Shown: positions 46,693 to 62,243 of the stretch, one piece after another
Layout: the number at the start of each line of letters is the position of its first letter
Numbering within the stretch: the first letter of the stretch is position 1
NCBI GenBank assembly: GCA_020353515.1
Contig: CP070695.1
Location: 1,367,637-1,431,636, forward strand
Source of the DNA: Candidatus Heimdallarchaeota archaeon
GTDB taxonomy: Archaea; Asgardarchaeota; Heimdallarchaeia; Hodarchaeales; Hodarchaeaceae
Length of the DNA stretch: 64,000 nucleotides
Reading direction: 5' to 3'
Notes under the pieces: model-generated
Databases searched by the model: none
Told to the model about the DNA's origin: nothing
The model's input: the letters and a program-made list of their open reading frames with translations, nothing else
Program-made: the position numbers and the translations under genes

Positions 46693-48729
46693 ATGAAAAG
46701 GATGTCTAGCTTAGATATTTATGCTATTACTAAGGAATTACAAGGATTAGTAGGATATCGTGTTGATAACATCTATCGTGACATAACAGATACATTCTAC
46801 CTTTTCAAATTCAAAGGTAAAGGCCATTTAAAGAACCCATTTCTCTTAATTGAACCGGGAATACGGATCCATTTGACCGAGATGCAACATTCAGTTTCAA
46901 AACCTCCTTCTGACAAAATTTTAGCAATGAGGCAGCATCTAAAGGGAACTGATTTACTAAGTATTCAACAAATCGATTTTGATCGTTTGGTAGTATTAAC
47001 CCTGAAAGGAAAACAAGAATATAGGATTTATATTGAAATTTTTGGTAACCGACCAAATTTCATTGTTGTAGGCGACCAAAATCGTGTAATATTAGCAACT
47101 TGGTACAGAAAAATGCGTCATCGAGATGTACTCCCAGGAAAGGAGTTTGAATTTCCACCTAGTAGAGGGAAATCAATATTAGATATATCTTACGAAGAAA
47201 TACAACAAATAATTGAAGAAAATAATTCGGAAGATGAGCAGATTGTGAGAATGTTAGCTAAGAAAACGGGAGGAGGGGGTCCCCTAATGGAGGAAATCTT
47301 AGCTAGGTCAGATATAATTAAAACAACAAAAACCCAAGAAATAAGTGACAAAGAAGTCAATCAAATCTTTAATTCCATTAAGGAAATAAAAAAGGATCTA
47401 GAAAATCCAAAACCAACATTAATTGTTGACTCAGATGATACACCGTTATCATTTCAACCTATTGAGTTTAAATCAATAACAGGAATATCTAAAAAATACA
47501 ACAACTTTTCTTCAGCAGTAGATTCTTATTATTCCAATATTACTCCAAAAAGGTCTGTTGATCTAAAACAACACGATCGGGAAAAGAAGAAACTTCTCAA
47601 AGTTTTAGATTCACAGAAGAAAGCAATTATTGATTTTGAAACTAAGAAAAAGAAGTATAAGGACTTAGGAGACAAGATTTTTCTCCATTTAAATGAGATT
47701 GAAGAACTATTAACTACAATTGTGGCTGCTAGAAGAAATAACATTTCATGGTCAGAAATTCAGATAAAATTAGTGCAAGCGAAAAACGAAGGTAGGCCTT
47801 CGGCAAGGATATTCGATAAAATCATCCCTGATCGAGGACTAATTCACTTAACACTCGAAACAGAATCGATTGAGGTAGACTTCAGAAAATCAGCAACTGA
47901 AATAGCAAATGAATATTATGAGCGGGCAAAAAAAGCAACCAGGAAAATTTTGCCCGCTAAGGAAGCCATACTTGAAACTGAGAAAAGAATTAGTGTTCTT
48001 GAAAAAGATATTTCCGAACAACAGTTTGCTGAGAGTTTTACTCTAAAAAGAAGAAAGAGAAAATGGTATGAAAAATACCACTGGACAAAAACTGTTAATG
48101 GATTTTTAATTATTGGTGGTAAGGATATCCGAAGTAACGAGGAAATAGCTAAACGTCGAATGAAAAAAGATGACCTCTTCTTTCATGCAGAGTTACGTGG
48201 GGCACCTTATACCATTTTGATTCGCGATTCTAGTAGTGAAAACGTCACAGATAGTGATATTGCCTCAGCTGGGCTCTTGGCAGCTGCTTTTTCAAGTGGT
48301 TGGAAAGCTGGATATGGTGCTGTGGATGTCTATCATGTACCTGCAGAGAGTGCCAGTTTTACCGCGCCTAGTGGTGAGTATATCCCTAAGGGTGGAATAA
48401 TGGTTCGAGGAACGCGTAATTATCTTAGAGGTGTTAAAATGGCCCTAGCAATTGGAGTTAAAATAGGGGAATCCAATGCTTTGGTAATATATGGTTCAGA
48501 AGAAGATGTTGAATCAGAGAGTCCGATTTCCATAATTATTAAACCTGGGGCGGTATCAAAAGGAAAGATCGCCAAACAGATCCAAAAAATCCTAATTGAA
48601 AAAACAGAAAATCTTGAAGATAAAGCCAAAATACGTGGCATTGATTTTAATGATTTAGTCAGAGCCATTCCACACGATTCAGTTATCACTGAAGTGAGGT
48701 ATAGTGATTTGGGTGAGAAAAGAGATTAG
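46693..48729 (+). CDS. rqcH: Ribosome quality control NFACT protein (RqcH/Rqc2/NEMF family)
   Basis: MSSLDI, FDRLV, EIFG..N, KWYEKYHW, GGKD..SNE, FFHAE..GAP, APSGEYIPKG. Confidence 0.9.
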   Translation: MKRMSSLDIYAITKELQGLVGYRVDNIYRDITDTFYLFKFKGKGHLKNPFLLIEPGIRIHLTEMQHSVSKPPSDKILAMRQHLKGTDLLSIQQIDFDRLVVLTLKGKQEYRIYIEIFGNRPNFIVVGDQNRVILATWYRKMRHRDVLPGKEFEFPPSRGKSILDISYEEIQQIIEENNSEDEQIVRMLAKKTGGGGPLMEEILARSDIIKTTKTQEISDKEVNQIFNSIKEIKKDLENPKPTLIVDSDDTPLSFQPIEFKSITGISKKYNNFSSAVDSYYSNITPKRSVDLKQHDREKKKLLKVLDSQKKAIIDFETKKKKYKDLGDKIFLHLNEIEELLTTIVAARRNNISWSEIQIKLVQAKNEGRPSARIFDKIIPDRGLIHLTLETESIEVDFRKSATEIANEYYERAKKATRKILPAKEAILETEKRISVLEKDISEQQFAESFTLKRRKRKWYEKYHWTKTVNGFLIIGGKDIRSNEEIAKRRMKKDDLFFHAELRGAPYTILIRDSSSENVTDSDIASAGLLAAAFSSGWKAGYGAVDVYHVPAESASFTAPSGEYIPKGGIMVRGTRNYLRGVKMALAIGVKIGESNALVIYGSEEDVESESPISIIIKPGAVSKGKIAKQIQKILIEKTENLEDKAKIRGIDFNDLVRAIPHDSVITEVRYSDLGEKRD

Positions 48730-48753: not shown

Positions 48754-49395
48754 TTAAAAAATATCTGGGTCAGAGGATTGATCTTCTTCTGGTTGAGATC
48801 CTATACATGTTGGACATAATGTATAACCATTTGCACTTTTAAGGCAATCTGAATAATTACTACAATCATCACAAAATCCTTCAAACTCAATCAATACTCT
48901 TTCATTGTCATCAACAGACTTTTGAATAGTTTCCAACAACAAACGCTCTCTATGAATTCGAAGTAATCCTGGGGCAAATTTAAGGATATCATTAGTTGAA
49001 ACGATACCTAAGGGCTGGGAATAATCATTACCTTCAACAACTAAAATTCGTTCTATATTCTCTTGTGCCATCATTAACATTGTATTCTCTAAGGTTTCAT
49101 CCGCCGAAACAAAAGAAACAGGTTTACTCATGACGTCATCTACTAGAACAATACCAGGATCTAACGCACGACCCACAACTCGTTGAATAATATCTCCCTT
49201 TGTTATGATTCCTTCTATTTGGTTGTTTTTAATAATGATTGAACCAACCTGATTTTCAACCATTAATTTGGCCGCTTCAGTTACAGGTTGATTACTTGGC
49301 ATTGATATAATCCCTTTAGTTTTCTTTGATACTTCGCCTACTGACTGTGATTTTAGCAGGTTACCTATTAAAACCTCTCTTTCGTTATCAATCAA
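48754..49395 (-). CDS. CBS-domain pair protein with C-terminal Zn finger
   Basis: EAAKLM...VGS, GIITKGDI, VMSKP, GIVSTNDI; GFCDDC..LCPTC. Confidence 0.85.
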   Translation of the reverse strand: MIDNEREVLIGNLLKSQSVGEVSKKTKGIISMPSNQPVTEAAKLMVENQVGSIIIKNNQIEGIITKGDIIQRVVGRALDPGIVLVDDVMSKPVSFVSADETLENTMLMMAQENIERILVVEGNDYSQPLGIVSTNDILKFAPGLLRIHRERLLLETIQKSVDDNERVLIEFEGFCDDCSNYSDCLKSANGYTLCPTCIGSQPEEDQSSDPDIF

Positions 49396-49639: not shown

Positions 49640-52600
49640 TTAGATTAGTGTAGTAGGACGAGGCCCCTTTTCAAATAATAAACGTTTATTTAATTCAACC
49701 AATTCAACCCAAGAATGACAATACTCGGAAATATCTGAGTTGTATTGGTCTTTTAGTTGATTAACAATTTGTAAATATCTAAGAACCCATCCTTCGGATA
49801 ATGTTAATCCGATAGTCCGACGATGGCAAACGGGACAATTTGAGAGAGGAACACGTCGGAAGGTTGTATTACATGTATTACACCGTACTGGCTGTAGAAA
49901 GAAACGTGTCATAGAGGTTGTTATCTTTGGTAGGAAATCATTTACCAATATATCGTCAACAAACTCTCCTTCCTTCACCCCCCGAATACGACTGAGAACT
50001 CGTAATTCTGTCTCTATTTTAGAAACAATTTTACTTTCACGAAAGAGATTTTCGAAATTATAACGAGAAACATTGTCAATGTTGTGGGAAATTGGTAAAG
50101 GAGGCTTAAGAAATGACATTTTATAGGATAATAACTCCTCTTTTAAGGGATTTTCGATTAGATTGTTAAAAAATGAAAGATTCATTAATATTGAATCATA
50201 ACTGGCATAAACAGATGTTTCTTCCCATTCATCAGATAGATTGATGATAGCAGGCACATCCATTGTTCCTCCACGTAATGTAGGAACAAACTCCATTGAA
50301 AAATTAAGTAAGACATCTAGAAGGAGTGTTATTGAATCAATATCTCCATTACAATTTCGTGTTTTGAGTATATGCCACAAGGGATGAGCATAAATGACAT
50401 TATTTTCAGTATACCCGATAATTCTTCCAATGACTGCAACCATTGAAAATGGAGACAATCCAACGATTAAAAAGCCGGTAATGTCATTCAAAGAATTGAT
50501 TCTATAATAAGGAGGTAGTTCATATAAAAATGTTAATTCATCATCAATAAACTTAGATAAATCGACAAGAAATTCGCCCGCTGTTTTACTTACTATTACA
50601 TCAAAAGGATTGATTTCTATGAGTTGATCATCTTGTATCAAGTCATTACCAAATACATCATGAGTATAACCAAGTCTTAGGAGATCCTCGACCGAGCTAT
50701 GAACTTCACTAGGTGTGAAATAGGTAAGAGGTGCATTAGTTTGGTCAAAACGGCTCGTTCCATCTTTGTAAACAAAAAGATTGTGTTTTGCTCGTAATAT
50801 TCCTTTGATGATGTGTTCTGGTATTCGATTCTTACTGTTTAGAAAAGATACTCCCTTAATTTTTGTTAAATCATCTATTCCTGTTTTTTGAACACCAGAT
50901 TTTATTATTCCTGCAACATTAATCGGTTTAATTCTTGCAGGAAAGGCATATTGACCACACTCTCTACAGTTTCTTGTGTCAGATATATGTCCAGTCTTAC
51001 ATACAAATTGCTGTTTTGTTTCTTCTAAACATTTTGGACAAAAGGTAACGTATGTAGATTCCCCGCATGTTGTACAAAATCTTTCTGATATTTGAATATC
51101 GACATTAGCTCCCTTTTTTACCTTCAAAAGATTTCTTTGGGTGCCCCCATGAGAACCGATGGGAAAAAGAATATGCGAAGGCGGATTAATATGTCGAGGT
51201 TCTGATTTTTCGACTCTTATTATTTTTAGTCCAATTCTTCTATGACATAGTGATCTTATAGGGATTTTAGTAAGCTCTTGAACTACTTTCTCAATTCCTA
51301 CAGCTGAATCCTCTGATAAAATCTGTGTAATTTCCTCCTCTTTTCCTCTCAATGAATGGATAAAGGGCTGAAATCGTTCTGATTGAATATTACTACCGTG
51401 AATTATAAAAGGGGCACCTAACTGTCTAAGTATTACCTTTAAATCATCATCATCGGGGAGTAAGTCTTCGTTAGTGCTATCTATTTTTTGAATTAATCGT
51501 ATGAGATCACTAATAGCAATTTCATTCCAGTTAAAAGAATAAAATGGGTGGATTGGGACTTCAGTTATCCTGCTTAAGTTAAGAGCAATTTCTGGTGATG
51601 GTTGAAAACGTGTTGGCTCACTCAATAATTTCTCTAGCTCAATAGGAGAAATCCGTATAATATTTGCTAAATATTCAATCGATCTGAATTTTGAGGAAAT
51701 CATACGCTTAACTTCTTGACTCCACCATTCCTCAGTCCAAGCAGACAATTCAATAGTTTCTGTAGCTGGAATATCATCTGGAGAAAGTAAAATGTCTCCC
51801 ATTTCCCAGATCTGAGTTACATCACTTTCTACTTCAATGATTCTGGTTAAGGATTCAATCCTCTCACTAGAACCATCTTTAAATTCAACTAGAGGACCTG
51901 TTAGGGTTGAAACTGGGAAAACTGTAAGGGGTCGTTCCATGAAATCAATTTTAATGCTCGTGCCTGGAGACATCATTTCTGAAAGATACATTGTCACTGG
52001 ATGAACTCCCGCGGCACCTTGGCCCGTGTTACGTGAATAGCCATATCTTAATCTAAATCCTCCAGGTTTTCCTGATCTTGAGAGTAAAGGCTGTGTCCCA
52101 CGAACCTCGTTTCTTCCAAATTCATGTTTTTTCCTTCTTATCCCTTCAAAAGGGGGTACAAGCCATTCCCACTCAGGAATACCTGAAGCTAGACGAAGAT
52201 GAGCGATTGAGTTGATATTATCAATTATTTTATCAAAAGCAACACACATACCCATTCGCAATCTATTTGTCATATTTGGTAAATTTCGATATTTCTTAAC
52301 TTCAATTCGTTCATACGCTTCCCCAGAAATCTCAACACCGATATTTTGTACTAAAAAGTTGATTAAGTCTTTTCGTAAATCCCAAGAACGATCATTCATT
52401 TTAAAGTAAATTTCTATTTCTTCAACATATCTATTTATCAGTTCTGGGGACGGATTATACCGATTAAGATGTAAAACATGTCGTATATAATCAGCAATTA
52501 GAACTACTAGTCCAACAGTCTCTCCAGTTACATAACGTACTGTATTGGAAAAATATATGGTTAAGTGGTTTGATTTAGAACCAATTGAAATCTTTGGAAT

Positions 52601-52960
52601 GCTTTCATGAGGAACTGAGATCAATCCTTGACTTAAAATCACTAAAGAGCTGTGTAGCGCCATTAGTATAAGATTCTCACGAGTATCTTTTACAAATCGT
52701 CCATTAACAATCTGTTTGGCAATATCTGCAGCTAAAAGAAGAGGACTTTCATGCCAAGAGAGATTTGAAGGGAGATATTCTTCTAATTTCGGAATATTTA
52801 GAATTGCTCCTATCTTCGCTTTTGAAGTAAAAGTAAGTTTGGATTCTATTTTGGATTGAGGGTCGAGCTTTCGGGCTCTTGCTTGTGTTGCTAATTGAAC
52901 TTGAGTTTTAAGGACGTTTTTTATATTTTGAAGATATTCTAGAAACTCTTTTTCTATCAT
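49640..52960 (-). CDS. polC: DNA polymerase D large subunit (DP2) homologue, strongly diverged
   Basis: ARARKLDP, GGFRLRYGYSRNTG, KGILRAKH..VYKDGT.RFD.TN.PLT.F, RNCNGDID..LLLD.LLNFS, GG.MD.P and C-terminal CNTC..RRVPL..CPVC. Confidence 0.85.
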   Translation of the reverse strand: MIEKEFLEYLQNIKNVLKTQVQLATQARARKLDPQSKIESKLTFTSKAKIGAILNIPKLEEYLPSNLSWHESPLLLAADIAKQIVNGRFVKDTRENLILMALHSSLVILSQGLISVPHESIPKISIGSKSNHLTIYFSNTVRYVTGETVGLVVLIADYIRHVLHLNRYNPSPELINRYVEEIEIYFKMNDRSWDLRKDLINFLVQNIGVEISGEAYERIEVKKYRNLPNMTNRLRMGMCVAFDKIIDNINSIAHLRLASGIPEWEWLVPPFEGIRRKKHEFGRNEVRGTQPLLSRSGKPGGFRLRYGYSRNTGQGAAGVHPVTMYLSEMMSPGTSIKIDFMERPLTVFPVSTLTGPLVEFKDGSSERIESLTRIIEVESDVTQIWEMGDILLSPDDIPATETIELSAWTEEWWSQEVKRMISSKFRSIEYLANIIRISPIELEKLLSEPTRFQPSPEIALNLSRITEVPIHPFYSFNWNEIAISDLIRLIQKIDSTNEDLLPDDDDLKVILRQLGAPFIIHGSNIQSERFQPFIHSLRGKEEEITQILSEDSAVGIEKVVQELTKIPIRSLCHRRIGLKIIRVEKSEPRHINPPSHILFPIGSHGGTQRNLLKVKKGANVDIQISERFCTTCGESTYVTFCPKCLEETKQQFVCKTGHISDTRNCRECGQYAFPARIKPINVAGIIKSGVQKTGIDDLTKIKGVSFLNSKNRIPEHIIKGILRAKHNLFVYKDGTSRFDQTNAPLTYFTPSEVHSSVEDLLRLGYTHDVFGNDLIQDDQLIEINPFDVIVSKTAGEFLVDLSKFIDDELTFLYELPPYYRINSLNDITGFLIVGLSPFSMVAVIGRIIGYTENNVIYAHPLWHILKTRNCNGDIDSITLLLDVLLNFSMEFVPTLRGGTMDVPAIINLSDEWEETSVYASYDSILMNLSFFNNLIENPLKEELLSYKMSFLKPPLPISHNIDNVSRYNFENLFRESKIVSKIETELRVLSRIRGVKEGEFVDDILVNDFLPKITTSMTRFFLQPVRCNTCNTTFRRVPLSNCPVCHRRTIGLTLSEGWVLRYLQIVNQLKDQYNSDISEYCHSWVELVELNKRLLFEKGPRPTTLI

Positions 52961-52966
52961 TTCCTC

Positions 52967-53689
52967 TCACGATAAAATATGAACACCATTCATCAAGGTT
53001 ACATTAAGTATGCCCAGATTATCTAGGTTGTTTTCCCCCTCAAAGTAATATATGCCAGTATAGTCTGAACTGGAAGAGGGAATAAGATAGTGAGTAGTAT
53101 TAAAGATATAGATTGAAGAAGCATCTACGTTTTCGAGCTGTTTTCCTCTTGATTGTTGAATGATAACTTTATTACCCTGAATTTCAACACGTCCAATAAA
53201 AACAATAGAAAAGGCTTCATCAATGGTGAACGTAGACGAGACAGCACTCATCCTCAAATGCAGTTCTGCTTGAATCTGACTAGAATAAACAGTTCCGAAG
53301 CTGTCTGATACATTCCCATAAGGAGCTAATTGTGCGCTAAGATTGAAGTTGTGATTAGATAATTGGAATTCTGAAGTAACCCCTCTCGCAGAGTAGAGTG
53401 TTTCGATTCCATTTAAAAAATCATTTATTCTAGTGATGGCTGTACTGGGAGTCAATGTTGTACCATTCTCAGAGTATTCAGTTAAAATTAGTTCCAAGTA
53501 ATTCTGAATTTCACGTTTTGAGTCCAAGTATGGTTCTCGTAAGGTTTCCCGATCAAATTCGATTCTTTCGGCTCCAAGATTCATCAAAGCAGAGGTCATC
53601 ATTACAACATAAACAGCTATTAACATCGTTGCTAAGATGAACATCTGACCTCTATGTTTTTTCGAGTATTTGAATCCTGGAATTCCCAT
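52967..53689 (-). CDS. Pilin-like protein with class III signal peptide
   Basis: KKHRG^QMFILATMLIAVYVVMM. Confidence 0.7.
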   Translation of the reverse strand: MGIPGFKYSKKHRGQMFILATMLIAVYVVMMTSALMNLGAERIEFDRETLREPYLDSKREIQNYLELILTEYSENGTTLTPSTAITRINDFLNGIETLYSARGVTSEFQLSNHNFNLSAQLAPYGNVSDSFGTVYSSQIQAELHLRMSAVSSTFTIDEAFSIVFIGRVEIQGNKVIIQQSRGKQLENVDASSIYIFNTTHYLIPSSSSDYTGIYYFEGENNLDNLGILNVTLMNGVHILS

Positions 53690-54205
53690 CTAGAATTTCT
53701 CCCATAAATATAGTTGTACCAGATATTGCGTAGTATATTGCCCAAACGTGGCTGAAGTAAACGAACCTAAATGGTAATTCGCCACAACTCCTTTTCCTCC
53801 TTGTTGGAGTGCAACAAGGGCTGTTGAAGACCCAATAACGCTAAAAAAATCTTCATTAATTGTACCATTAACTATTTCATGAGCAATTAGGGCATAGTCA
53901 ATATTTTTAGACACTATAGTAGTAATATATTCATTCAGTAGATTTTTGTAACTTAAAAATTCCTGTTCATATCTAGTGTCTCCATAAAGATATATAACAG
54001 GTCTTAATAATCCTGCTTCATCTGAAGCTGCAAGAATATCTGTTGCTGTTTGATCCAAACCAGTAAGATTTGAATAAGACGATAAGGTCTGATTTGTTGC
54101 CCCTATCAATAGAAGAGCAAGAACAAGCATTAATGCTACTGAAACAAGTGTTTCTGCAATCTGTAGTTGTCCTCTATGTTTATTCATTTGTTCTATTTGC
54201 TCCAT
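53690..54205 (-). CDS. Pilin-like protein with class III signal peptide
   Basis: KHRG^QLQIAETLVSVALMLVLALLL. Confidence 0.75.
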   Translation of the reverse strand: MEQIEQMNKHRGQLQIAETLVSVALMLVLALLLIGATNQTLSSYSNLTGLDQTATDILAASDEAGLLRPVIYLYGDTRYEQEFLSYKNLLNEYITTIVSKNIDYALIAHEIVNGTINEDFFSVIGSSTALVALQQGGKGVVANYHLGSFTSATFGQYTTQYLVQLYLWEKF

Positions 54206-55353
54206 AAGGTTAATTGACAGCTCATTAACGTACCTCTGACAATAATGGGATAGAATTTTGATAACATTGATTTTGTTCTGGTACCAGGAATTTCTTCTCC
54301 AAATACCTGGTTAAATATCCCACCAGTCGAAACACGATCAAGAATCACAGGATATGATCCTATTTTTACTTGATACTGGTTATCAGTTATAGCAATACTG
54401 AGAAAGGCAACCAAACCTTCATTCGGAATTGAAACTGTCTCATTGCCATACGAGGCTGTTTCTAAATTTATAGTTTTTTTCGAGTAGCCCGATGTGGTAT
54501 TTTGATATATGATAGAGAGAAAATGCGAATCAGGACTTATTGGTAAATTATCTGATGCTAAAAAACTAGTAGAATTGATACCTCCTCCCCAAATAGTTGT
54601 ACTTGAAGATGGACCAATGAAAACTACTTCAGAAGTTGGATCATTGAAACTCCAGTTCATACACCAAAGAGGACCTTTTTCTACAATGATAAATACTATA
54701 TGTTCTCCCCCTGGGACATTTTCAGTGGGATTTGATAGCTGGAGAGAAGTTTCTCCGTTGGAATTAGTTAATGTTGCTCCTTCAGGAATCACATTGCCAT
54801 TAGTCAGATCAATGGTAAAGAAATTAACTAAAGCATCTGCAATAGATATATTATAAAGATTTTTTACATTTACTTGAGCGAAATTTGTAGAAGAAGCATT
54901 TACTTCTGCATTTAATAAAGGATAGAATCCTAATCGGAAATTAAAATCCCTATCTAAACCGATTGTCTCCTTAAGAGTGTCATAATCAAACATTGTGTAT
55001 CCTGATACACCAGATGAATCCTTAAACGTTAATCGCGCTATTTTTGCACTATCTAAAACAAGATATGACTGTGCATTACTATCCGCTAGGCCAAAAGATG
55101 CTGGAAGTGATTGATGATAGCCCCAATCAAGATCTCCATCCTCAAAAAGTAATTGACGACCTAAGATATCTAACTCCTCATAGGTTATGATTTCCCTTGA
55201 ACTGGTATTTATACCTGTTTGTACATTAATAACAAGTAAAATTAACTGCGATAACATAAGTAAGAAGAGAAAAAGACTCACAACAAAGTCGACAGCTCTA
55301 ATCTGTCCACGGCGTCGTTTTTTAAGTCTTGGAAAGTTCATCTTGTTACCCAT
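54193..55353 (-). CDS. Large minor-pilin-like protein with class III signal peptide
   Basis: KKRRRG^QIRAVDFVVSLFLFLLML; G...W....FGLA segment typical of archaeal minor pilins. Confidence 0.75.
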   Translation of the reverse strand: MGNKMNFPRLKKRRRGQIRAVDFVVSLFLFLLMLSQLILLVINVQTGINTSSREIITYEELDILGRQLLFEDGDLDWGYHQSLPASFGLADSNAQSYLVLDSAKIARLTFKDSSGVSGYTMFDYDTLKETIGLDRDFNFRLGFYPLLNAEVNASSTNFAQVNVKNLYNISIADALVNFFTIDLTNGNVIPEGATLTNSNGETSLQLSNPTENVPGGEHIVFIIVEKGPLWCMNWSFNDPTSEVVFIGPSSSTTIWGGGINSTSFLASDNLPISPDSHFLSIIYQNTTSGYSKKTINLETASYGNETVSIPNEGLVAFLSIAITDNQYQVKIGSYPVILDRVSTGGIFNQVFGEEIPGTRTKSMLSKFYPIIVRGTLMSCQLTLWSK

Positions 55354-55383
55354 TTATCGATGTAAATAATCCATTTAAACTCG

Positions 55384-55839
55384 CTAAGATATGACATCCT
55401 CGGTAGAAGAACCAACATTCGCGACCTCAAGTTGAATAACTATCTCTTGGATACGATCTTTTAATTCTAACATTGTTGTTTCCAATTCTGTCAATTGTAA
55501 TCCCTTCTCTAAGAGAGAGGTGGCTTGTGAAATTAGTTCATCAGCTTTCTGGGTTTTATCTGTCTTCATTGTTGAGGTTAGCTCTGTTAAATTATTCATT
55601 TTTTTCATAATTTCGGAGATATTGTTTTCAATTTCAGAGATTCTTTTTTCCAGAGGGGCTAGATCAACTTCAACAGGACCAGCTTGAGGAGCAGATACAG
55701 ATTTTAAGGCTGGAGATTTGGGTGTTGCTCCACCTGTTCCCATCCCCTGAACCATCAAAAACTCCATATTGGTTAGTTTATCTTCTAGAGCTGAAACTTT
55801 ATCTAGTAATTCTGTGAGCATTTTTTCTTCTTTTCCCAT
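55384..55839 (-). CDS. Cytoplasmic coiled-coil protein within the pilus cluster
   Basis: Heptad repeats around a Pro/Gly/Ala linker. Confidence 0.65.
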   Translation of the reverse strand: MGKEEKMLTELLDKVSALEDKLTNMEFLMVQGMGTGGATPKSPALKSVSAPQAGPVEVDLAPLEKRISEIENNISEIMKKMNNLTELTSTMKTDKTQKADELISQATSLLEKGLQLTELETTMLELKDRIQEIVIQLEVANVGSSTEDVIS

Positions 55840-55862
55840 GAAAATCGACCTCGAATTACATA

Positions 55863-56861
55863 TTATACCAGACCAAATAGTGAGAAAATCTGTGAGATAA
55901 TATCTGCTATTAGGATCTTAAAGATCACGTAGCAAATTATTAAAAGAATACAGGAATATTTTAGTCCAAGATTTGCATTTCCTTGCCCCATCTTACCTGC
56001 TATGAGACCTGCAAATATTGCTTCAACAACCATTAAATGGAAGAAGATTAATTGCATTCCTGCAACATTAAATGGCAATGCTGCTGTTAATGGTTGTTCT
56101 TCTGATACTGCTTCTACCATGTTAAGAGCTAAGGTTTGGAAGAAGGAAATGAGTAAAATGATCATCACTAACGAGAAGACGATATATGAAACAAAAATTA
56201 TCCAAGTGAATGGTTTCATCGACCCAAGACGTTCCCTTTTTAATCCAAGAACTTCTGATACGTGTCTATGAGCAGAATCGAATACATCCTCAATGGCTCC
56301 TCCTGAACGTTCAGCCTCTAAGATTAATAGTGATGTTCTTCTCATCAGGGGAGTATCTGTAATTTCCGTTAAACTTCGAAGTGTTTTACTAAAAGGGATT
56401 CCCCAACTGATCTTGGCTGCCATTTTTTTCAATTCAGGAGTAAGAGCTCCGTAATTGTGCTTACTTGCTGACATGATTGCCCTTGGCAATGGAAGACCAG
56501 TCTTTTGAGCGTCAGAAACCTCACGTAACAAGGATGGGATATTTTCATCAATGTTGTCACGCCATTTTTGGTCGGAATGATATGCCCAAGCTGGAATAAC
56601 AATTAAGACAAGAATAGCTACAACAGTTATGTCAATAACATCAAAGAAATTGACAATTGGATCTCTGATAACCTCACTTACTTTGTCAAGATAACTGTTA
56701 TCCATTGGATCTCCCTCTTCTTTTATGGGAGGTTCTACTGGAAAAATGTGATTTAAAACTGGGATATAAAAGTAGAAAAAGGCTGTTCCAGATGCTATTA
56801 TGAAGAAAAGTATCGATATAATCCAGATCCACCGTTCACGTTTTTTTGTTAATTTTCCCAT
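55863..56861 (-). CDS. Type II/IV secretion system F-family membrane platform protein (TadC/ArlJ-like)
   Basis: IPSLLREVSD...GLPL..A....YGALTPEL....SWG, EAERSGG, GLIAGKM. Confidence 0.9.
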   Translation of the reverse strand: MGKLTKKRERWIWIISILFFIIASGTAFFYFYIPVLNHIFPVEPPIKEEGDPMDNSYLDKVSEVIRDPIVNFFDVIDITVVAILVLIVIPAWAYHSDQKWRDNIDENIPSLLREVSDAQKTGLPLPRAIMSASKHNYGALTPELKKMAAKISWGIPFSKTLRSLTEITDTPLMRRTSLLILEAERSGGAIEDVFDSAHRHVSEVLGLKRERLGSMKPFTWIIFVSYIVFSLVMIILLISFFQTLALNMVEAVSEEQPLTAALPFNVAGMQLIFFHLMVVEAIFAGLIAGKMGQGNANLGLKYSCILLIICYVIFKILIADIISQIFSLFGLV

Positions 56862-56882
56862 TGCTTGTAACCTCTTTTTCTA

Positions 56883-57791
56883 CTAAACCTCTCGTGAAAT
56901 CGTAGAGATCAACAAAATCATTACAACTAGCAAAATAGGCATTATTAAGTAAGTTAATAGCAACATTATGACAGTTAAAATTTCTATCTCTGGTGAAATA
57001 ACAGCAAGAATTGCGATAATAACAACAAAAAACAAAGGAGCAACCACTCCTAAAATCATAAATATTTCCGCTAATATTCCTAACTGCTCAATGAACTCCT
57101 TAGTTTCCTCTTCCTTCATTTTCATTAAAGCTTTTGCTTCAGCAGAGAGATAAAAGGTTAAATCTCCTCCACTTGTGACCGTTGCTGACATTCCATCTAA
57201 AAATTTAGAAAATCGTTCGGAAGGGGATCTTTCACTTGCAGTACGTAACGCCTTTAGAATGTCATATCCAAAGATTTCGATATCCCTTGTAATTCGCTTA
57301 CTCTCTTTAGAGATTTCTGGAGCAACTGAGGCTTCTCCTGCGAGTGAATAAAACAATCTGTTTGGAGGGACTCCTGAACTCGACATAGCGGAAAGATATG
57401 AAGCAGTAGAAGGTAATCCTGACTCTATCAATATTTTACGATCAGCGGCCTTCATCTGTGGCCAATAGAGGAATGGTAGATATGCAACAATGCTTATTAT
57501 TACCCCAATGACTATTCCAAGTAAGATGGACGGAAAAAGCTGATTTTGAATATTTGCAGCTTGAAGCAATAGTATACTGGTTGTTATAATGATAAAAGAC
57601 AAAATTCCCACAAGAATCGAACTAAAAATGGCACTTCCTAGATAAGCACGAACAGAAATATCCATACCTGCTTTTTTTAGACTTGTATTTAGTCTTTCAA
57701 AGCGTCCTTTTTCAATCCAGGGTTCAAGAAATCTGCCAAATCTGAGATAACCGACTCTTCTAATGACCTTACTCACAAGTAAACACTCCAA
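56883..57791 (-). CDS. Type II/IV secretion system F-family membrane platform protein (TadB/C-like)
   Basis: LKKAGM, LP....YLSAMSSSG, G.DIL.AL....RSPS..F..FL.G......SGG. Confidence 0.9.
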   Translation of the reverse strand: MECLLVSKVIRRVGYLRFGRFLEPWIEKGRFERLNTSLKKAGMDISVRAYLGSAIFSSILVGILSFIIITTSILLLQAANIQNQLFPSILLGIVIGVIISIVAYLPFLYWPQMKAADRKILIESGLPSTASYLSAMSSSGVPPNRLFYSLAGEASVAPEISKESKRITRDIEIFGYDILKALRTASERSPSERFSKFLDGMSATVTSGGDLTFYLSAEAKALMKMKEEETKEFIEQLGILAEIFMILGVVAPLFFVVIIAILAVISPEIEILTVIMLLLTYLIMPILLVVMILLISTISREV

Positions 57792-57797
57792 ATGATC

Positions 57798-59306
57798 TTA
57801 AATTGCTTTTAACTCTCTTTTTGCACGATCAACTGTTTCAAGAGCACTCTGGTAATAACTGTTAATTACTTCAGACACCTGAGAAAAATGGGCTAACTTC
57901 TTTTTAACCATCCACCTTAAGATGGTTTTTCTGCGCTCAAGTTCATCGAAAACTTGGGCCTCAGTCAAACCTTGAGCTTCTTGAATACCTTCTAAGGCGT
58001 AGGATCGGCCATAGTTGATAAATGCATCCTCACGAGCATTCCATCCAAAAACTTTGTTCGTTATCAATTCTGTCGTTACAGGATCTATTCCTACGATTTC
58101 AGTGCATTCGATCACTCGTCGTACTTGTTTGTCACCACGACGGACCTTTCGAAGGACGAGAAGGATATTTAAGGTTTGAATTAAAGTTCTTGGAATATTC
58201 ATTGGTTCATTCTCTAGACGTCTAATAGTTCCAGTTACGCTATCACCGTGAATTGTCCCCATTCCAGTGTGACCAGTAGCCATTGCTTGAAAGAGATTAT
58301 ACGCTTCTGCTCCTCGTACTTCTCCAACAAAAAGGTAATCTGGTCTTTGGCGAAGTGCTGCACGTAGAAGGTCATACATTGAGACTTCTCCTCGACGAGT
58401 TCCATCAGCTTCACGCCCTCCATAACCTTCTCGTGCCACAGCAGGAATCCAGTTTTCATGGGGAATATGAAGTTCTGCTGTGTCTTCAATCGAAACGATT
58501 TTCATTCCAGGTCTGATATACATAGCGAGACTATTGAGGAGCGATGTTTTTCCTGCTGCTGTACCTCCTGCAATAACAATGGAATTTCTATTTTCTAAGA
58601 TATACCATAAGAACGCAGCCAAATCCTCATCAATGGTGTTAAAAATTACCATATCTGTTATTGTTAATGGATCAGATCGAAATTTTCTGATAGTAAAAGT
58701 ACTCCCTCGCTGGGTTACCTCACGACCATAGGTAAGCTGAAGTCGGCTGCCATCTGGTAATGCAGCATCTAGTAAAGGTCTCGCTACACTGATATGGCGT
58801 CCAGCTCGTTGAGCTAATTTGATGATAAATGCATCCAAGTTGTCCTCCTCCTCAAATTTAACATTTGTTTGGATACTTTCAAATTTCCGGTGCCAAATAT
58901 AAACAGGAATTCCTACTCCATCACAAGATATATCTTCGACATTGTGGTCCTTTAGCATTGCATCAATCGGACCGAATCCGACGAAATCACGAGTAATATG
59001 ATAATTAATCTTATCGAAGGTTTTCTCATCTAATTTTAGTCCATAATCTTTAGCAATTCTAATTACCTTAGATCTAAGGTAATCACGTGCAACCTCAGGA
59101 TTTTTAAGGACATTGAAATCTACATCCAATTCTTCTTCGAGAATATTTTTAATCATATCTAAGATTTCTTTCTCTTTAGTGCTTAAAGGAACTTCAACAA
59201 CAGTATATTTAGTCTGTTTGGTTTCAGGGTCGGTTGCAACCAACGCATAACTGAAGGGGGGGATTAATGGATATGTCTCTCGAATTAGACTACTTGATTC
59301 TGCCAT
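57798..59306 (-). CDS. Type IV pilus assembly ATPase (ArlI/TadA/VirB11 family)
   Basis: EDISCDG, LPDGSR, TIRKF, Walker A GGTAAGKT, SIEDTAEL, RQRPDY..VGEVRG.EA, TGH. Confidence 0.95.
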   Translation of the reverse strand: MAESSSLIRETYPLIPPFSYALVATDPETKQTKYTVVEVPLSTKEKEILDMIKNILEEELDVDFNVLKNPEVARDYLRSKVIRIAKDYGLKLDEKTFDKINYHITRDFVGFGPIDAMLKDHNVEDISCDGVGIPVYIWHRKFESIQTNVKFEEEDNLDAFIIKLAQRAGRHISVARPLLDAALPDGSRLQLTYGREVTQRGSTFTIRKFRSDPLTITDMVIFNTIDEDLAAFLWYILENRNSIVIAGGTAAGKTSLLNSLAMYIRPGMKIVSIEDTAELHIPHENWIPAVAREGYGGREADGTRRGEVSMYDLLRAALRQRPDYLFVGEVRGAEAYNLFQAMATGHTGMGTIHGDSVTGTIRRLENEPMNIPRTLIQTLNILLVLRKVRRGDKQVRRVIECTEIVGIDPVTTELITNKVFGWNAREDAFINYGRSYALEGIQEAQGLTEAQVFDELERRKTILRWMVKKKLAHFSQVSEVINSYYQSALETVDRAKRELKAI

Positions 59307-59449
59307 TTATTTGTAGCTCCTACTTTTTTTCTCTTCTAGATCCAAGAGTGATGTTTTTTTTTAGATTATTTTTTCCTAGGTAAATATTTCCTACTGATAA
59401 TATTTTTTTGATTTGGATAAAGGTAATCATAACTTTTAGTTTAATCTAC

Positions 59450-59902
59450 TCAAGAAATGGTTATTACGATATTATTTCCGTTTTTTTCTATATGTAAGGC
59501 CAATAGAGTATTTACACTTTCAAATATTGAATCTGATGTTTCAATAATGTATTTTGGGGCCACTGTAAAGATTTTTATCTGATCAACGTCTCCATTCGAG
59601 GAAAAACCGTGTAAAATGATCTGATTGTCAGAGGAGTTATAGATCTCAATAGAATACGGAGACATTTCCCCTATGACAGCTGGTAGTTCTAGTTGTTGTT
59701 CGATCAACTGACTACCGTCTGTTGAAAGAAGTAGTGATTGCTGAATTTGTTTTTGAATTAAATCAAGAATTCGTGTCATTTCCACATCTGCAATATTCTC
59801 CCGAAATTGGTCGCTTAATGTTAAGAACATGAGATTTGTGATAATAACCATGTTCAAACCAAGAATAAAGATAACAATAAATGTGATATATTGAGATGCC
59901 AT
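59450..59902 (-). CDS. Pilin-like membrane-anchored protein
   Basis: N-terminal hydrophobic helix; ELPAVIG..PY.I segment seen in archaeal pilus-associated proteins. Confidence 0.55.
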   Translation of the reverse strand: MASQYITFIVIFILGLNMVIITNLMFLTLSDQFRENIADVEMTRILDLIQKQIQQSLLLSTDGSQLIEQQLELPAVIGEMSPYSIEIYNSSDNQIILHGFSSNGDVDQIKIFTVAPKYIIETSDSIFESVNTLLALHIEKNGNNIVITIS

Positions 59903-59928
59903 ATATTATTCCACGATTTTTGTATTAT

Positions 59929-60870
59929 TTAAGATGTTGAGAGACCTACTTCATATACTAATGTTTGAACCACAATATTGAAGTATTGAAGATTAAGCCC
60001 TTGTATGGTTTGTGTACTCCAAATGGATGTAGTTAATGTTCCTGATGGTTGAGCATTATCCCAAACTAATTCTAAAGCTCCAATTGAGCTGTCTTCTGGT
60101 AAAGTATATGGAGTAGAATAGCTATTATAAGAATGAATTGTAATATGTTGATATTGGCTTCGAATAGCTTCAAAATCCGCCGAAAGCAGGATCAAAAAGA
60201 CCTCAAAGCGTATTTCGGGATCTGGTTGGGTTGAAATAGTTAAATAAATAGATATTCGATAGTTCAATGTTACATGGTGTCTTCTATCATCGAGATGGCT
60301 TAAAGTAAGGTTAGTTAGATCGAGATAATCAGTTGAGGAAAAAGTACCTGAAACAAAAATTGGATCACGAATTTTATAGGGGTCTGGTCCTGTTAAATAT
60401 TTCGTGGTTCCACGAGGAATGACAGCTCTCGGACTGTTATAGGTCCAATCTAGCACTCCGATCGTTAGAAATCCAGTGATATCATCAGTTAAATCTTCAA
60501 ATAGGTTATATACGAGGTTTTCATCTTGATCAAGCAACCTTAATCGATAAGAATATCGTGCAGGATCAAATTCAACCCGGCCAGCAGGTTTATTAAAGAG
60601 AACAGTCCGAAAACCTCCAGGAGCACCACTTTCACTTATCAAGGATTTTATTGTTGTATCCAACTCTAAGAAACTATTACTAGTTGTTGCTATCGCTTCT
60701 TCACTCTGAGCCTGTTGTATATATGGGACAACTTGAACGAAAGTGATCATGACTCCTGTAATGATTAGACCGAATATGATAACTGTCGCTAGAACAGGAG
60801 AAACACCACGTGTTGTCCGAAAAATTGGGTTAGTTTTTAGTTTCAGGTTAGTGATAATAGCTTTATTCAA
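59929..60870 (-). CDS. Archaeal type IV pilin-like protein
   Basis: TTRG^VSPVLATVIIFGLII, the canonical archaeal pilin/archaellin N-terminus. Confidence 0.85.
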   Translation of the reverse strand: MNKAIITNLKLKTNPIFRTTRGVSPVLATVIIFGLIITGVMITFVQVVPYIQQAQSEEAIATTSNSFLELDTTIKSLISESGAPGGFRTVLFNKPAGRVEFDPARYSYRLRLLDQDENLVYNLFEDLTDDITGFLTIGVLDWTYNSPRAVIPRGTTKYLTGPDPYKIRDPIFVSGTFSSTDYLDLTNLTLSHLDDRRHHVTLNYRISIYLTISTQPDPEIRFEVFLILLSADFEAIRSQYQHITIHSYNSYSTPYTLPEDSSIGALELVWDNAQPSGTLTTSIWSTQTIQGLNLQYFNIVVQTLVYEVGLSTS

Positions 60871-61208
60871 GTTCGATCCCTTTCTATCGTTTTAAATGCA
60901 TAATCACTATAAACAAGTCATTCTTCACGGATATATTATCAAAGATGTAATGATTTAAGGATTTTTGTATTCCCCAGAAAATTACTACACATTCTAAATT
61001 AACTCTTCTAAAGGGCAAAAAAATTCTTGTAAAGAATTAAGGGGAAGCCATAAAGAATTTACTCCAAAGAATAGAAAAGTCTTTCATAAAATTTCCTATT
61101 TTGTTTTATTCCTCAAAAGCAGAAAAGATTTAAGGAGTTCATAGGTTCAAAAAAATGACTTTTCTCAATAATCCTATGAGAGAATCTCCCTCTAAAACTG
61201 GTATGATA

Positions 61209-62243
61209 ATGGCACCGAAGAAAAAAACTGAAACTATTGAAGCAACAAAAACAACAAAAGTTGATAAAACGACTAAAGCTGTGACATCCATTACGGATTT
61301 ACCTGGAATAGGCCCCTCCACAGCTGCAAAATTAGTAGAGGCTGGTTTCTCAACCTTAGAATCCATTGCAACTGTTTCAGTTGGTGAGTTGACCTCAATC
61401 GCAAGTATGGGTGAGAAAACGGTAAAAAAGATAATCGAAGCAGCACGAGAAGCACTTGATATCGATTTTGAAACTGCCAAAACTGTGTTGGCTCGTCGTA
61501 AGGATTTGGCTAAAGTTACGACTGGTAGTCAAAAACTAGATGAACTATTTGGTGGTGGAATTGAAACTGGATCCGTAACGGAGCTTTTTGGCGAGTTTCG
61601 GACAGGAAAAACCCAAATTGCCCACCAACTCTGTGTGACCGTTCAGTTGCCCCGTGAAAAAGGTGGATTACGAGAAAGTGACAATTATCCAAAGGTAGTG
61701 TATATCGATAGCGAAAGCACGTTTCGTCCAGAAAGAATACTCTCAATGGCAAGTCGTTGGCAGGATGAATTAGATGAAGATTTGTTGTTAGAAAACATTT
61801 TACACGGACGTGCTCACAATTCCGATCACCAAATGGTATTAGTAGAAAAAATGATTAAGGATTATTTGCCTACTGAGAATGTTAAATTATTAGTAGTTGA
61901 TTCTTTAATTTCACATTTTCGTGCTGAATATGTTGGAAGAGGGACTTTAGCAACACGGCAACAAAAGCTTAACCAACACATCCACACCATTCTCCGAGCT
62001 GCAGAAATTGGGAATCTAGCTGTCATTGTCACAAATCAAGTCCATGCCAAACCTGACCAATTTTTCGGAGATCCCACCCATCCAGTAGGAGGACATATCG
62101 TTGCTCATGCAGCGCAAACGCGGGTATACCTTCGTAAATCAAAAGGTGAACGTAGAATAGCCCGAATAGTTGATAGTCCTCTCCTTCCTGAAAACGAAGC
62201 AGTCTTTGGATTAGCGGAAAATGGGATTATAGATGTAACATAA
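61209..62243 (+). CDS. radA: DNA repair and recombination protein RadA
   Basis: Hh[33 protein letters not shown]...HFRAEY.GRG.LA.RQQ, GGHIVAH. Confidence 0.96.

Follow-up and report, generated by a model that had tools for sequence, protein, structure and literature searches.

A PolD large subunit with a degenerate polymerase active site, probably inactive but retained across the Hodarchaeales

The locus described here raises the question of what the large subunit of DNA polymerase D (PolD) is kept for once the residues expected to make it a polymerase have been replaced. Most archaea that possess PolD depend on it as their essential replicase. The 64,000-nt stretch that we analysed (hereafter the window; contig CP070695.1, positions 1,367,637 to 1,431,636, from a Candidatus Heimdallarchaeota archaeon of the order Hodarchaeales) contains a gene for the large subunit, DP2, whose acidic catalytic motif reads NGDID. 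We consider it probable, on the strength of sequence comparisons, that this DP2 is polymerase-dead but retained; the specific scaffold role that we propose for it is held with lower confidence.

The DP2 gene and its active-site motifs

The gene lies as follows.

49640-52960, minus strand: DP2 gene (PolD large subunit homologue), 1106 aa, recognised by its translation and Pfam domains; sole copy, with a ratio of nonsynonymous to synonymous substitution rates (dN/dS) of ~0.1 against congeners

The open reading frame (ORF) is free of stops and carries the three Pfam DP2 domains in order, PF03833 (N-terminal, 2e-42), PF24844 (central, 3.6e-70) and PF24846 (catalytic, 8.6e-80). HMMER aligns it with Pyrococcus abyssi DP2 (6HMS_B) over residues 3-1098 with an E-value of 9e-164. 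A first reading of the locus from its sequence only had described a near-full-length DP2, and this is borne out. The protein does not reach the NCBIfam equivalog cut-offs, which denote functional equivalence (782 vs 1269 bits for NF003103, 688 vs 702 for TIGR00354), consistent with the name 'hypothetical protein' that its relatives carry in NCBI records. The closest of these come from genome records named Hodarchaeota or Hodarchaeales metagenome-assembled genomes (MAGs).

The sequence-only reading had gone on to propose a second, possibly inactive or repurposed DP2 paralogue. The eroded active site and a probable loss or change of function stand; the paralogue does not. The genome is a single contig of 4,943,496 bp (96% complete), and searches with the DP2 protein itself, with Pfam PF24846 at E<=1 and by tblastn with six canonical DP2s detected one DP2 locus only and no canonical DP2. 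A single catalytic-domain match was likewise obtained in each of the 22 other DP2-bearing Hodarchaeales genomes. That the gene is an extra, diverged copy beside a canonical DP2 elsewhere is therefore refuted for this genome unless the assembly misses a replicon, and we give the idea almost no probability. It is the single orthologous DP2 of its lineage, since the Hodarchaeales DP2s form one clade on the tree. The only DP2 of a complete genome carries NGDID, a motif found in its orthologues too, several of which have decayed further.

Four functional motifs have been defined in DP2 (PMC7708050, PMC6355029), and each of them is altered here.

50336-50365, minus strand: degenerate acidic a-motif KTRNCNGDID (canonical KRRNCDGDED); by alignment R960 (9N numbering) is replaced by T867 and D956 (P. 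abyssi; D964 in 9N) by N871, and D958 is kept as D873

50438-50461, minus strand: degenerate nucleotide-selectivity s-motif GLSPFSMV (canonical GLAPHTS), with the steric-gate His replaced by Phe838

51932-51952, minus strand: degenerate basic b-motif KIDFMER (canonical K-T-E-R-P-G-K), with the critical Lys (K398, 9N numbering) replaced by Arg

52520-52546, minus strand: degenerate KH-like template-guiding motif NTVRYVTGE (canonical GPIRxAGGT), with the GG loop lost

The a-motif change quoted in the first reading, HPLWHILKTRNCNGDID, is present in the sequence, as are VRYVTGE, the loss of ERPGK and a C-terminus ending in RPTTLI. In the alignment with 6HMS_B, D956, D958, E959 and D960 of the P. 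abyssi protein correspond to N871, D873, I874 and D875, respectively. Among 65 cluster representatives that served as our canonical set, the first Asp and the preceding Arg are invariant (65/65 each), and all the replaced positions (D956, the Arg, the steric-gate His, PGK of the b-motif and PIRxxGGT of the KH-like motif) are 94-100% conserved. The steric-gate His is found in 100% of the set and is F, T or I across the genus, where the residue equivalent to K398, an Arg in this protein, can be R, Q, G, D, N or A. The key residues of all four motifs are lost genus-wide and are canonical in other families of the Heimdallarchaeia. Because the first Asp and the Arg never vary in the canonical set and the substitutions are common to 22 other genomes, the active-site changes are due neither to chance nor to sequencing error. 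Of 122 columns conserved to at least 93% in the canonical DP2s, 88 are kept and 34 lost; among those kept are every Zn-I and Zn-III cysteine and the greater part of the double-psi beta-barrel (DPBB) core.

The consequences of such replacements can be gauged from mutants. Only D956 and D958 are strictly conserved Asp residues in DP2 (PMC6355029), and both were found essential by alanine scanning (PMC4996933, which cites Shen 2001 for this). In the Thermococcus 9N enzyme D964A and D966A abolish polymerisation, mutation of R960 or R961 causes products to stop at ~10 nt, and K398A nearly abolishes primer extension, less than 15% of primers gaining one nucleotide; H931A, which removes the steric gate, leaves synthesis intact but abolishes ribonucleotide discrimination (PMC7708050). 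The KH-like motif adjoins the first template nucleotide (PMC6355029). Since the first essential Asp, the Arg, the Lys at the primer 3' end, the steric-gate His and the KH-like guide are all replaced, the polymerase active site is predicted to be inactivated in both its catalytic and its substrate-handling residues, and processive DNA synthesis has most likely been lost. One element of the earlier interpretation had to be dropped here, namely that DGDED supplies three ligands. The first two acidic positions are D and D in ~135 of 150 cluster representatives and the third varies (A/L/T/N/C/S/I/M); we accordingly rejected the third Asp as a catalytic ligand, the literature naming D956 and D958 alone as invariant and essential (PMC6355029, PMC4996933).

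Distribution, selection and the fate of the acidic loop

A census of DP2 was made by catalytic-domain search in a species-level genome library containing 24 Hodarchaeales genomes. Exactly one match was obtained in 23 of them, and in none is it canonical; the remaining genome, a 1.4-Mb record that is 71% complete, gave no match. Other Heimdallarchaeia families retain NCDGDED. Within the order most a-motifs read NCNGD[IV]D, the variants being TCNGDID, NCSGNID, SCNGATD, SCNGAND, SCNGVTD and SCNGVSD, and in the second Hodarchaeales family we found TANGDID in one genome (G023) and a loop devoid of any acidic residue in another (G022). The form NG[AV]xD occurs in five species of the genus and in the metagenomic clusters P0002, P0007 and P0133, SGNID in G010. 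These order-wide variants lead us to conclude that the change from Asp to Asn is ancestral to the Hodarchaeales; the second Asp has been lost at least three further times. All Hodarchaeales DP2s fall in one long-branched clade on a FastTree phylogeny of 85 intein-free DP2s, and identity between the two families is as low as 22-27%.

As a separate observation, canonical Heimdallarchaeia DP2s frequently carry an intein exactly at the RRNC/DGDED junction (L032, L033, L035, L036 and L037). The Hodarchaeales DP2s examined have none at this site.

Despite this divergence the gene is under purifying selection and not a pseudogene, because dN/dS is ~0.1, changed positions have become fixed to new residues and the C-terminal tail is conserved. 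Between congeners dN/dS (Nei-Gojobori) is 0.08-0.14 at dS 0.35-1.8, and it is still ~0.1 in the clade that has lost both Asp residues (0.105 for the pair L023/L025). It is ~0.1 in all domains, and lowest, at 0.04-0.09, in the C-terminal domain that binds DP1, the small PolD subunit. Roughly half of the canonical-invariant positions that have changed now hold a single new residue throughout the genus (for example N139, M236, N871, D1008, K1012, S1016 and R1061), the rest being variable. We make no claim as to whether selection is relaxed relative to canonical DP2, the pairs from other Heimdallarchaeia being saturated or affected by inteins, as in the implausible 0.58 for L030/L033.

The conserved parts of the C-terminal half include both metal-binding modules and an unusual tail.

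51029-51076, minus strand: Zn-I finger CTTC...CPKC, retained (C629/632/641/644); its four Cys never vary, either in the canonical set or across the genus

49826-49882, minus strand: Zn-III finger CNTC...CPVC of the C-terminal (clamp-1, DP1-binding) domain, retained (C1027/1030/1042/1045)

49643-49666, minus strand (49640-49666 with the stop codon): C-terminal tail GPRPTTLI, from tail comparison

All eight cysteines are present, as had been noted from the sequence, and the residues around Zn-III and in the helices that follow it, which form the predicted DP1 interface, are invariant in the genus. The PCNA-interacting (PIP) box of canonical tails, Qxx[LIM]xx[FYW][FYWLM], was not found in GPRPTTLI, which has no Gln and no aromatic pair. 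The tail is conserved in its own right: G170, T174 and L176 are invariant in 19 sequences of the genus and P171 and P173 nearly so, making G-P-x-P-T-T-L close to invariant.

It could be argued that a protein which has lost 34 of 122 invariant positions, sits on very long branches (chiefly in the second family) and scores below the NCBIfam equivalog cut-offs, with relatives named 'hypothetical', is a functionless relic decaying towards loss. The pattern of change makes this very unlikely. Full-length frames are open in nearly all species, a single in-frame TGA in the DP2 match of the congener L015 (G015:C1:2667766-2671077) being the only stop seen; it could stem from a sequencing error, a recent break or recoding. 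Neither dN/dS values of ~0.1 at dS up to saturation nor the fixation of new residues, including a newly conserved tail, would be expected of a decaying gene.

A more serious alternative is that the enzyme is active through a register-shifted acidic motif, with D873 and D875 as metal ligands, and that it polymerises DNA or RNA with reduced or specialised activity. N871-G-D873-I-D875 indeed repeats the N-x-D-x-D of canonical N-C-D-G-D, moved by two residues. Among 14 sequences of the genus N871 is conserved in 13 and D875 and S876 in all, each of them more than D873, and D875 is better kept than its canonical counterpart, which is D in 56 of 65 sequences. NGD[IV]D is moreover retained in the metagenomic cluster P0004 and in G023 of the second family, and without the steric-gate His the enzyme would be expected to become less selective for the sugar and not to lose catalysis, H931A being active (PMC7708050). 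Against this, the DP2s that lack D873 (the NG[AV]xD lineages, SGNID in G010, and G022) are intact and, where tested, have dN/dS of ~0.1; since these lineages are both intact and constrained, the conserved function does not need D873. The b-motif Lys is variable, and R960, the GG loop of the KH-like motif and the s-motif have been lost in parallel. A two-residue shift in a catalytic loop built as a beta-hairpin, with Ile in place of Gly, would in addition be structurally demanding. We therefore regard a shifted active site as unlikely, though it is the strongest competitor to a polymerase-dead DP2.

DP1, the B-family polymerases and a possible structural role

If DP2 is polymerase-dead but retained, its partners should indicate what it is retained for. 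No DP1 gene was found within the window, in line with the first reading, and the single DP1 of the genome (539 aa; L003:1345-2964, minus strand, equivalent to G000:C1 ~2720728-2722344) lies ~1.3 Mb from DP2, convergent with an adjoining orc1/cdc6 gene. It matches P. abyssi DP1 at 4e-47 and is ~29% identical to canonical Heimdall DP1. Its nuclease motifs I (DxH), II (GDxxDG), IV (H) and V (GHxH) are intact, and motif III reads GEHD instead of GNHD. The same holds for the genus, where motifs I, II, IV and V do not vary and 18 of 19 DP1s have GEHD; the exception, GERD, occurs in the genome whose DP2 reads NCSGNID.

DP1 residues 135-539 (OB and PDE domains) and DP2 residues 930-1106 were modelled with genus alignments alongside three controls. 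The complex scored 0.88 against 0.00 for the best control, but as the P. abyssi DP1-DP2 complex is already solved (6HMS, 6T8H) this may reflect likeness only and not binding. The mark of 0.88 is reached by 58 of 80 solved complexes and by 2 of 110 mismatched pairs. Between runs the agreement in contacts was at least 78%, and the partner pLDDT was at least 61.

The genome also encodes four B-family polymerases (PolBs), active enzymes and a Pol-epsilon-like one among them, to which DNA synthesis may have passed. Two have an intact motif C and PIP-like tails, and in one of them motifs A to C are complete: the 843-aa enzyme has motifs A, B and C and a PIP-box tail, and the 861-aa enzyme motif C and the Exo motifs. 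A 773-aa homologue (G000:C1:4311192-4313510, minus strand; L006), in which a pattern search found neither Exo I-III nor motifs A, B or C, probably belongs with the inactivated PolBs known from archaea. The fourth, of 1432 aa (L078:3106-7404, minus strand, equivalent to G000:C1:4569108-4573403), has the catalytic subunits of DNA polymerase epsilon (Pol epsilon) as its best PDB matches (~1e-56) and ends in a CSEC...CTFC C-terminus. Its orthologues in several congeners contain inserts, probably inteins, that extend the ORFs to 1900-2020 aa. At E<=1e-20 this polymerase was detected in 22 of the 23 other Hodarchaeales and in 0 of 17 other Heimdallarchaeia searched, and between the two Hodarchaeales families it is 42-45% identical, vs 22-27% for DP2. 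The C-terminal domain of the Hodarchaeal Pol-epsilon-like PolB showed no yeast two-hybrid interaction with DP1 in a study that does not discuss DP2 inactivation (PMC12680538, 2025).

We propose that DP2 persists as a non-catalytic scaffold that would hold DP1 in the replisome. The nuclease site of DP1 is mostly preserved, and the subunit may have kept its nuclease activity; its N-terminal domain may also serve as a tether to GINS/CMG and primase. DP2 would then be a structural partner, either a nuclease holder or a hub that connects DP1 with primase, GINS and possibly PCNA, and DNA would be synthesised by the B-family polymerases, including the enzyme of the Hodarchaeales that resembles the N-terminal half of Pol epsilon (Pol-epsilon-N-like). 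The hub model follows PolD contacts known in Thermococcales and Heimdallarchaeia (PMC12680538).

A number of points weigh against a dead but retained DP2. The polymerase-dead status of Hodarchaeales PolD is deduced from residue comparisons. D873 and D875 remain, and with N871, D875 and S876 conserved the loop is under constraint and could bind metal; that NGD[IV]D is kept between families at ~25% identity exceeds what pure decay would lead one to expect. The dN/dS values are not clearly different from those of canonical Heimdall DP2, a comparison that inteins and saturation of dS obscure. The joint occurrence of this DP2 and the Pol-epsilon-like PolB counts as a single phylogenetic event and not as independent replication, because all the genomes concerned belong to one clade. 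Finally, DP1 was not found with protein and PF04042 queries in two second-family genomes that are 80-85% complete, a miss that cannot be called an absence, and a role in holding DP1 may thus not be universal.

Gene neighbourhood and comparison with known systems

The genes flanking DP2 are as follows.

52967-60870, minus strand: type IV pilus-like cluster with a PilB-like ATPase gene, two T2SSF platform genes and pilin-like DUF7261/7288/7266/7289 ORFs (Pfam)

61155-62243, plus strand: radA, divergent from the pilus-like cluster

46693-48729, plus strand: NFACT-family (ribosome quality control) gene on the downstream flank of DP2, convergent with it; syntenic across the genus

48754-49395, minus strand: CBS-domain gene on the downstream flank of DP2; syntenic across the genus

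The pilus-like cluster lies upstream of DP2, and the stop codon of its last pilin-like ORF is separated by 6 nt from the DP2 ATG on the same strand. Wherever a locus of the genus has an upstream flank, pilin-like genes, DP2 and the CBS gene follow one another in this order, down to 49% DP2 identity. DP2 might thus have been recruited to DNA uptake or DNA processing, co-transcribed with the pilins and with radA divergent. However, the NFACT and CBS genes are equally syntenic, which looks like general regional synteny of one genus, and in the second family the neighbours of DP2 are unrelated, namely genes for a beta-eliminating lyase and an SMC-like ATPase in one of its two genomes and for a GTPase and a tRNA synthetase in the second. 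DP1 still adjoins cdc6, and no part of DP2 is under stronger constraint than its DP1-binding domain. We consider such a recruitment highly improbable, and a functional link between DP2 and the pilus is retained as a remote alternative only, the synteny being confined to the genus, taking in unrelated neighbours and being absent in the other family.

A dead DP2 of this kind is already known, and the present gene is a further member. The Heimdall_B3/LC3-like group was reported to 'lack active DP2', to have a divergent or inactive DP1 and to carry a B10 (Pol-epsilon-N-like) PolB with a Zn C-terminal domain (Kazlauskas 2020, NAR 48:10142, PMC7544198), the DP2 active-site alignment being given in Suppl. 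Fig. S16 of that work. Our case agrees in lineage (Hodarchaeales, formerly Heimdall LC-3), in the substituted DP2 active site, and in the co-occurring B10/Pol-epsilon-N-like PolB with a Zn-binding C-terminus. For a divergent or inactive DP1 the likeness is less certain: the DP1s of the genus keep four of the five nuclease motifs, as reported for B3, whereas the LC3 DP1 is extremely divergent and clearly inactive (Kazlauskas 2020, PMC7544198). The earlier description consists of one sentence and the supplementary alignment for two MAGs, as against the order-wide analysis made here. New are the sole copy in a closed genome, the order-wide census with its stepwise decay, the map of four motifs, the selection profile, the conserved replacement tail and a second, unrelated lineage with a dead DP2.

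This second lineage consists of the metagenomic clusters P0087, P0141 and P0145, in which the a-motifs read GGEVD, ASADD and EGNTD and the b-, s- and KH-like motifs have gone as well. Its sequences are placed among the canonical DP2s, remote from the Hodarchaeales, and one of its contigs carries both PolD genes ~4 kb apart.

L104:6001-9441, plus strand: DP2 locus of the P0145 contig, second dead-DP2 lineage

L104:362-1783, plus strand: DP1 locus of the same contig

The DP1 of this contig is convergent with cdc6, is no nearer to Hodarchaeales DP1 than to canonical DP1s and reads PGECD in motif III, the same change of Asn to Glu as in Hodarchaeales DP1. Decay of the same four motifs, together with the DP1 change from GNHD to GE[HC]D, in an unrelated lineage may point to a repeatable evolutionary route and not an accident. 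The clade may be the Nitrososphaeria group listed by Kazlauskas 2020 as lacking an active DP2.

Compared with canonical DP2 (P. abyssi 6HMS/6T8H/8PPT, T. kodakarensis 6KNB), the Hodarchaeal protein keeps the three-domain architecture with the C-terminal domain, the Zn-I/Zn-III cysteines, most of the DPBB core and the predicted DP1 interface. It differs in being only ~30-35% identical, in having lost the key residues of the a-, b-, s- and KH-like motifs and in its missing PIP box. Aenigmatarchaeota and Baldrarchaeia have lost DP2 and kept DP1 (PMC7544198, PMC12680538). There too the polymerase function of PolD was given up and a DP1-family subunit persists beside PolBs; but in those lineages DP2 itself was deleted, its C-terminal domain having been transferred to a PolB, whereas the Hodarchaeales keep a full-length, constrained DP2.

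In eukaryotic Pol epsilon the dead C-terminal PolB module binds Dpb2/POLE2, an inactivated DP1 homologue, and organises the replisome. The Hodarchaeales resemble this arrangement, by analogy only, in keeping an inactivated polymerase module, which would be preserved for binding the DP1-family subunit and organising the replisome, beside an active polymerase of the Pol-epsilon-N type. They differ from it in that the dead module has a two-barrel and not a PolB fold and is a separate protein, and in that the C-terminal domain of the Pol-epsilon-like enzyme did not bind DP1 in the yeast two-hybrid assay (PMC12680538). It is conceivable, if doubtful, that Hodarchaeales PolD is a living counterpart of the non-catalytic half of Pol epsilon, the dead DP2-DP1 serving as a hub tethered to GINS/CMG and primase, the Pol-epsilon-N-like PolB synthesising DNA and GPRPTTL acting as a new docking peptide in place of the PIP box.

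Annotation pipelines call such proteins 'hypothetical' or 'DNA polymerase II large subunit', and neither label fits. Eukaryotes have lost the catalytic core of PolD, and what they retain of it are the B-subunits of the DP1 family and a C-terminal domain of the DP2 type; the Hodarchaeales are among their closest archaeal relatives. They appear to be caught in between, with a dead catalytic core, the whole protein preserved and a Pol-epsilon-like polymerase alongside. With a closed genome and clear selection on the gene, the question can be addressed through assays of expression and binding, and knowing the remaining role of the dead DP2 would put scenarios for the assembly of the eukaryotic replisome to the test.

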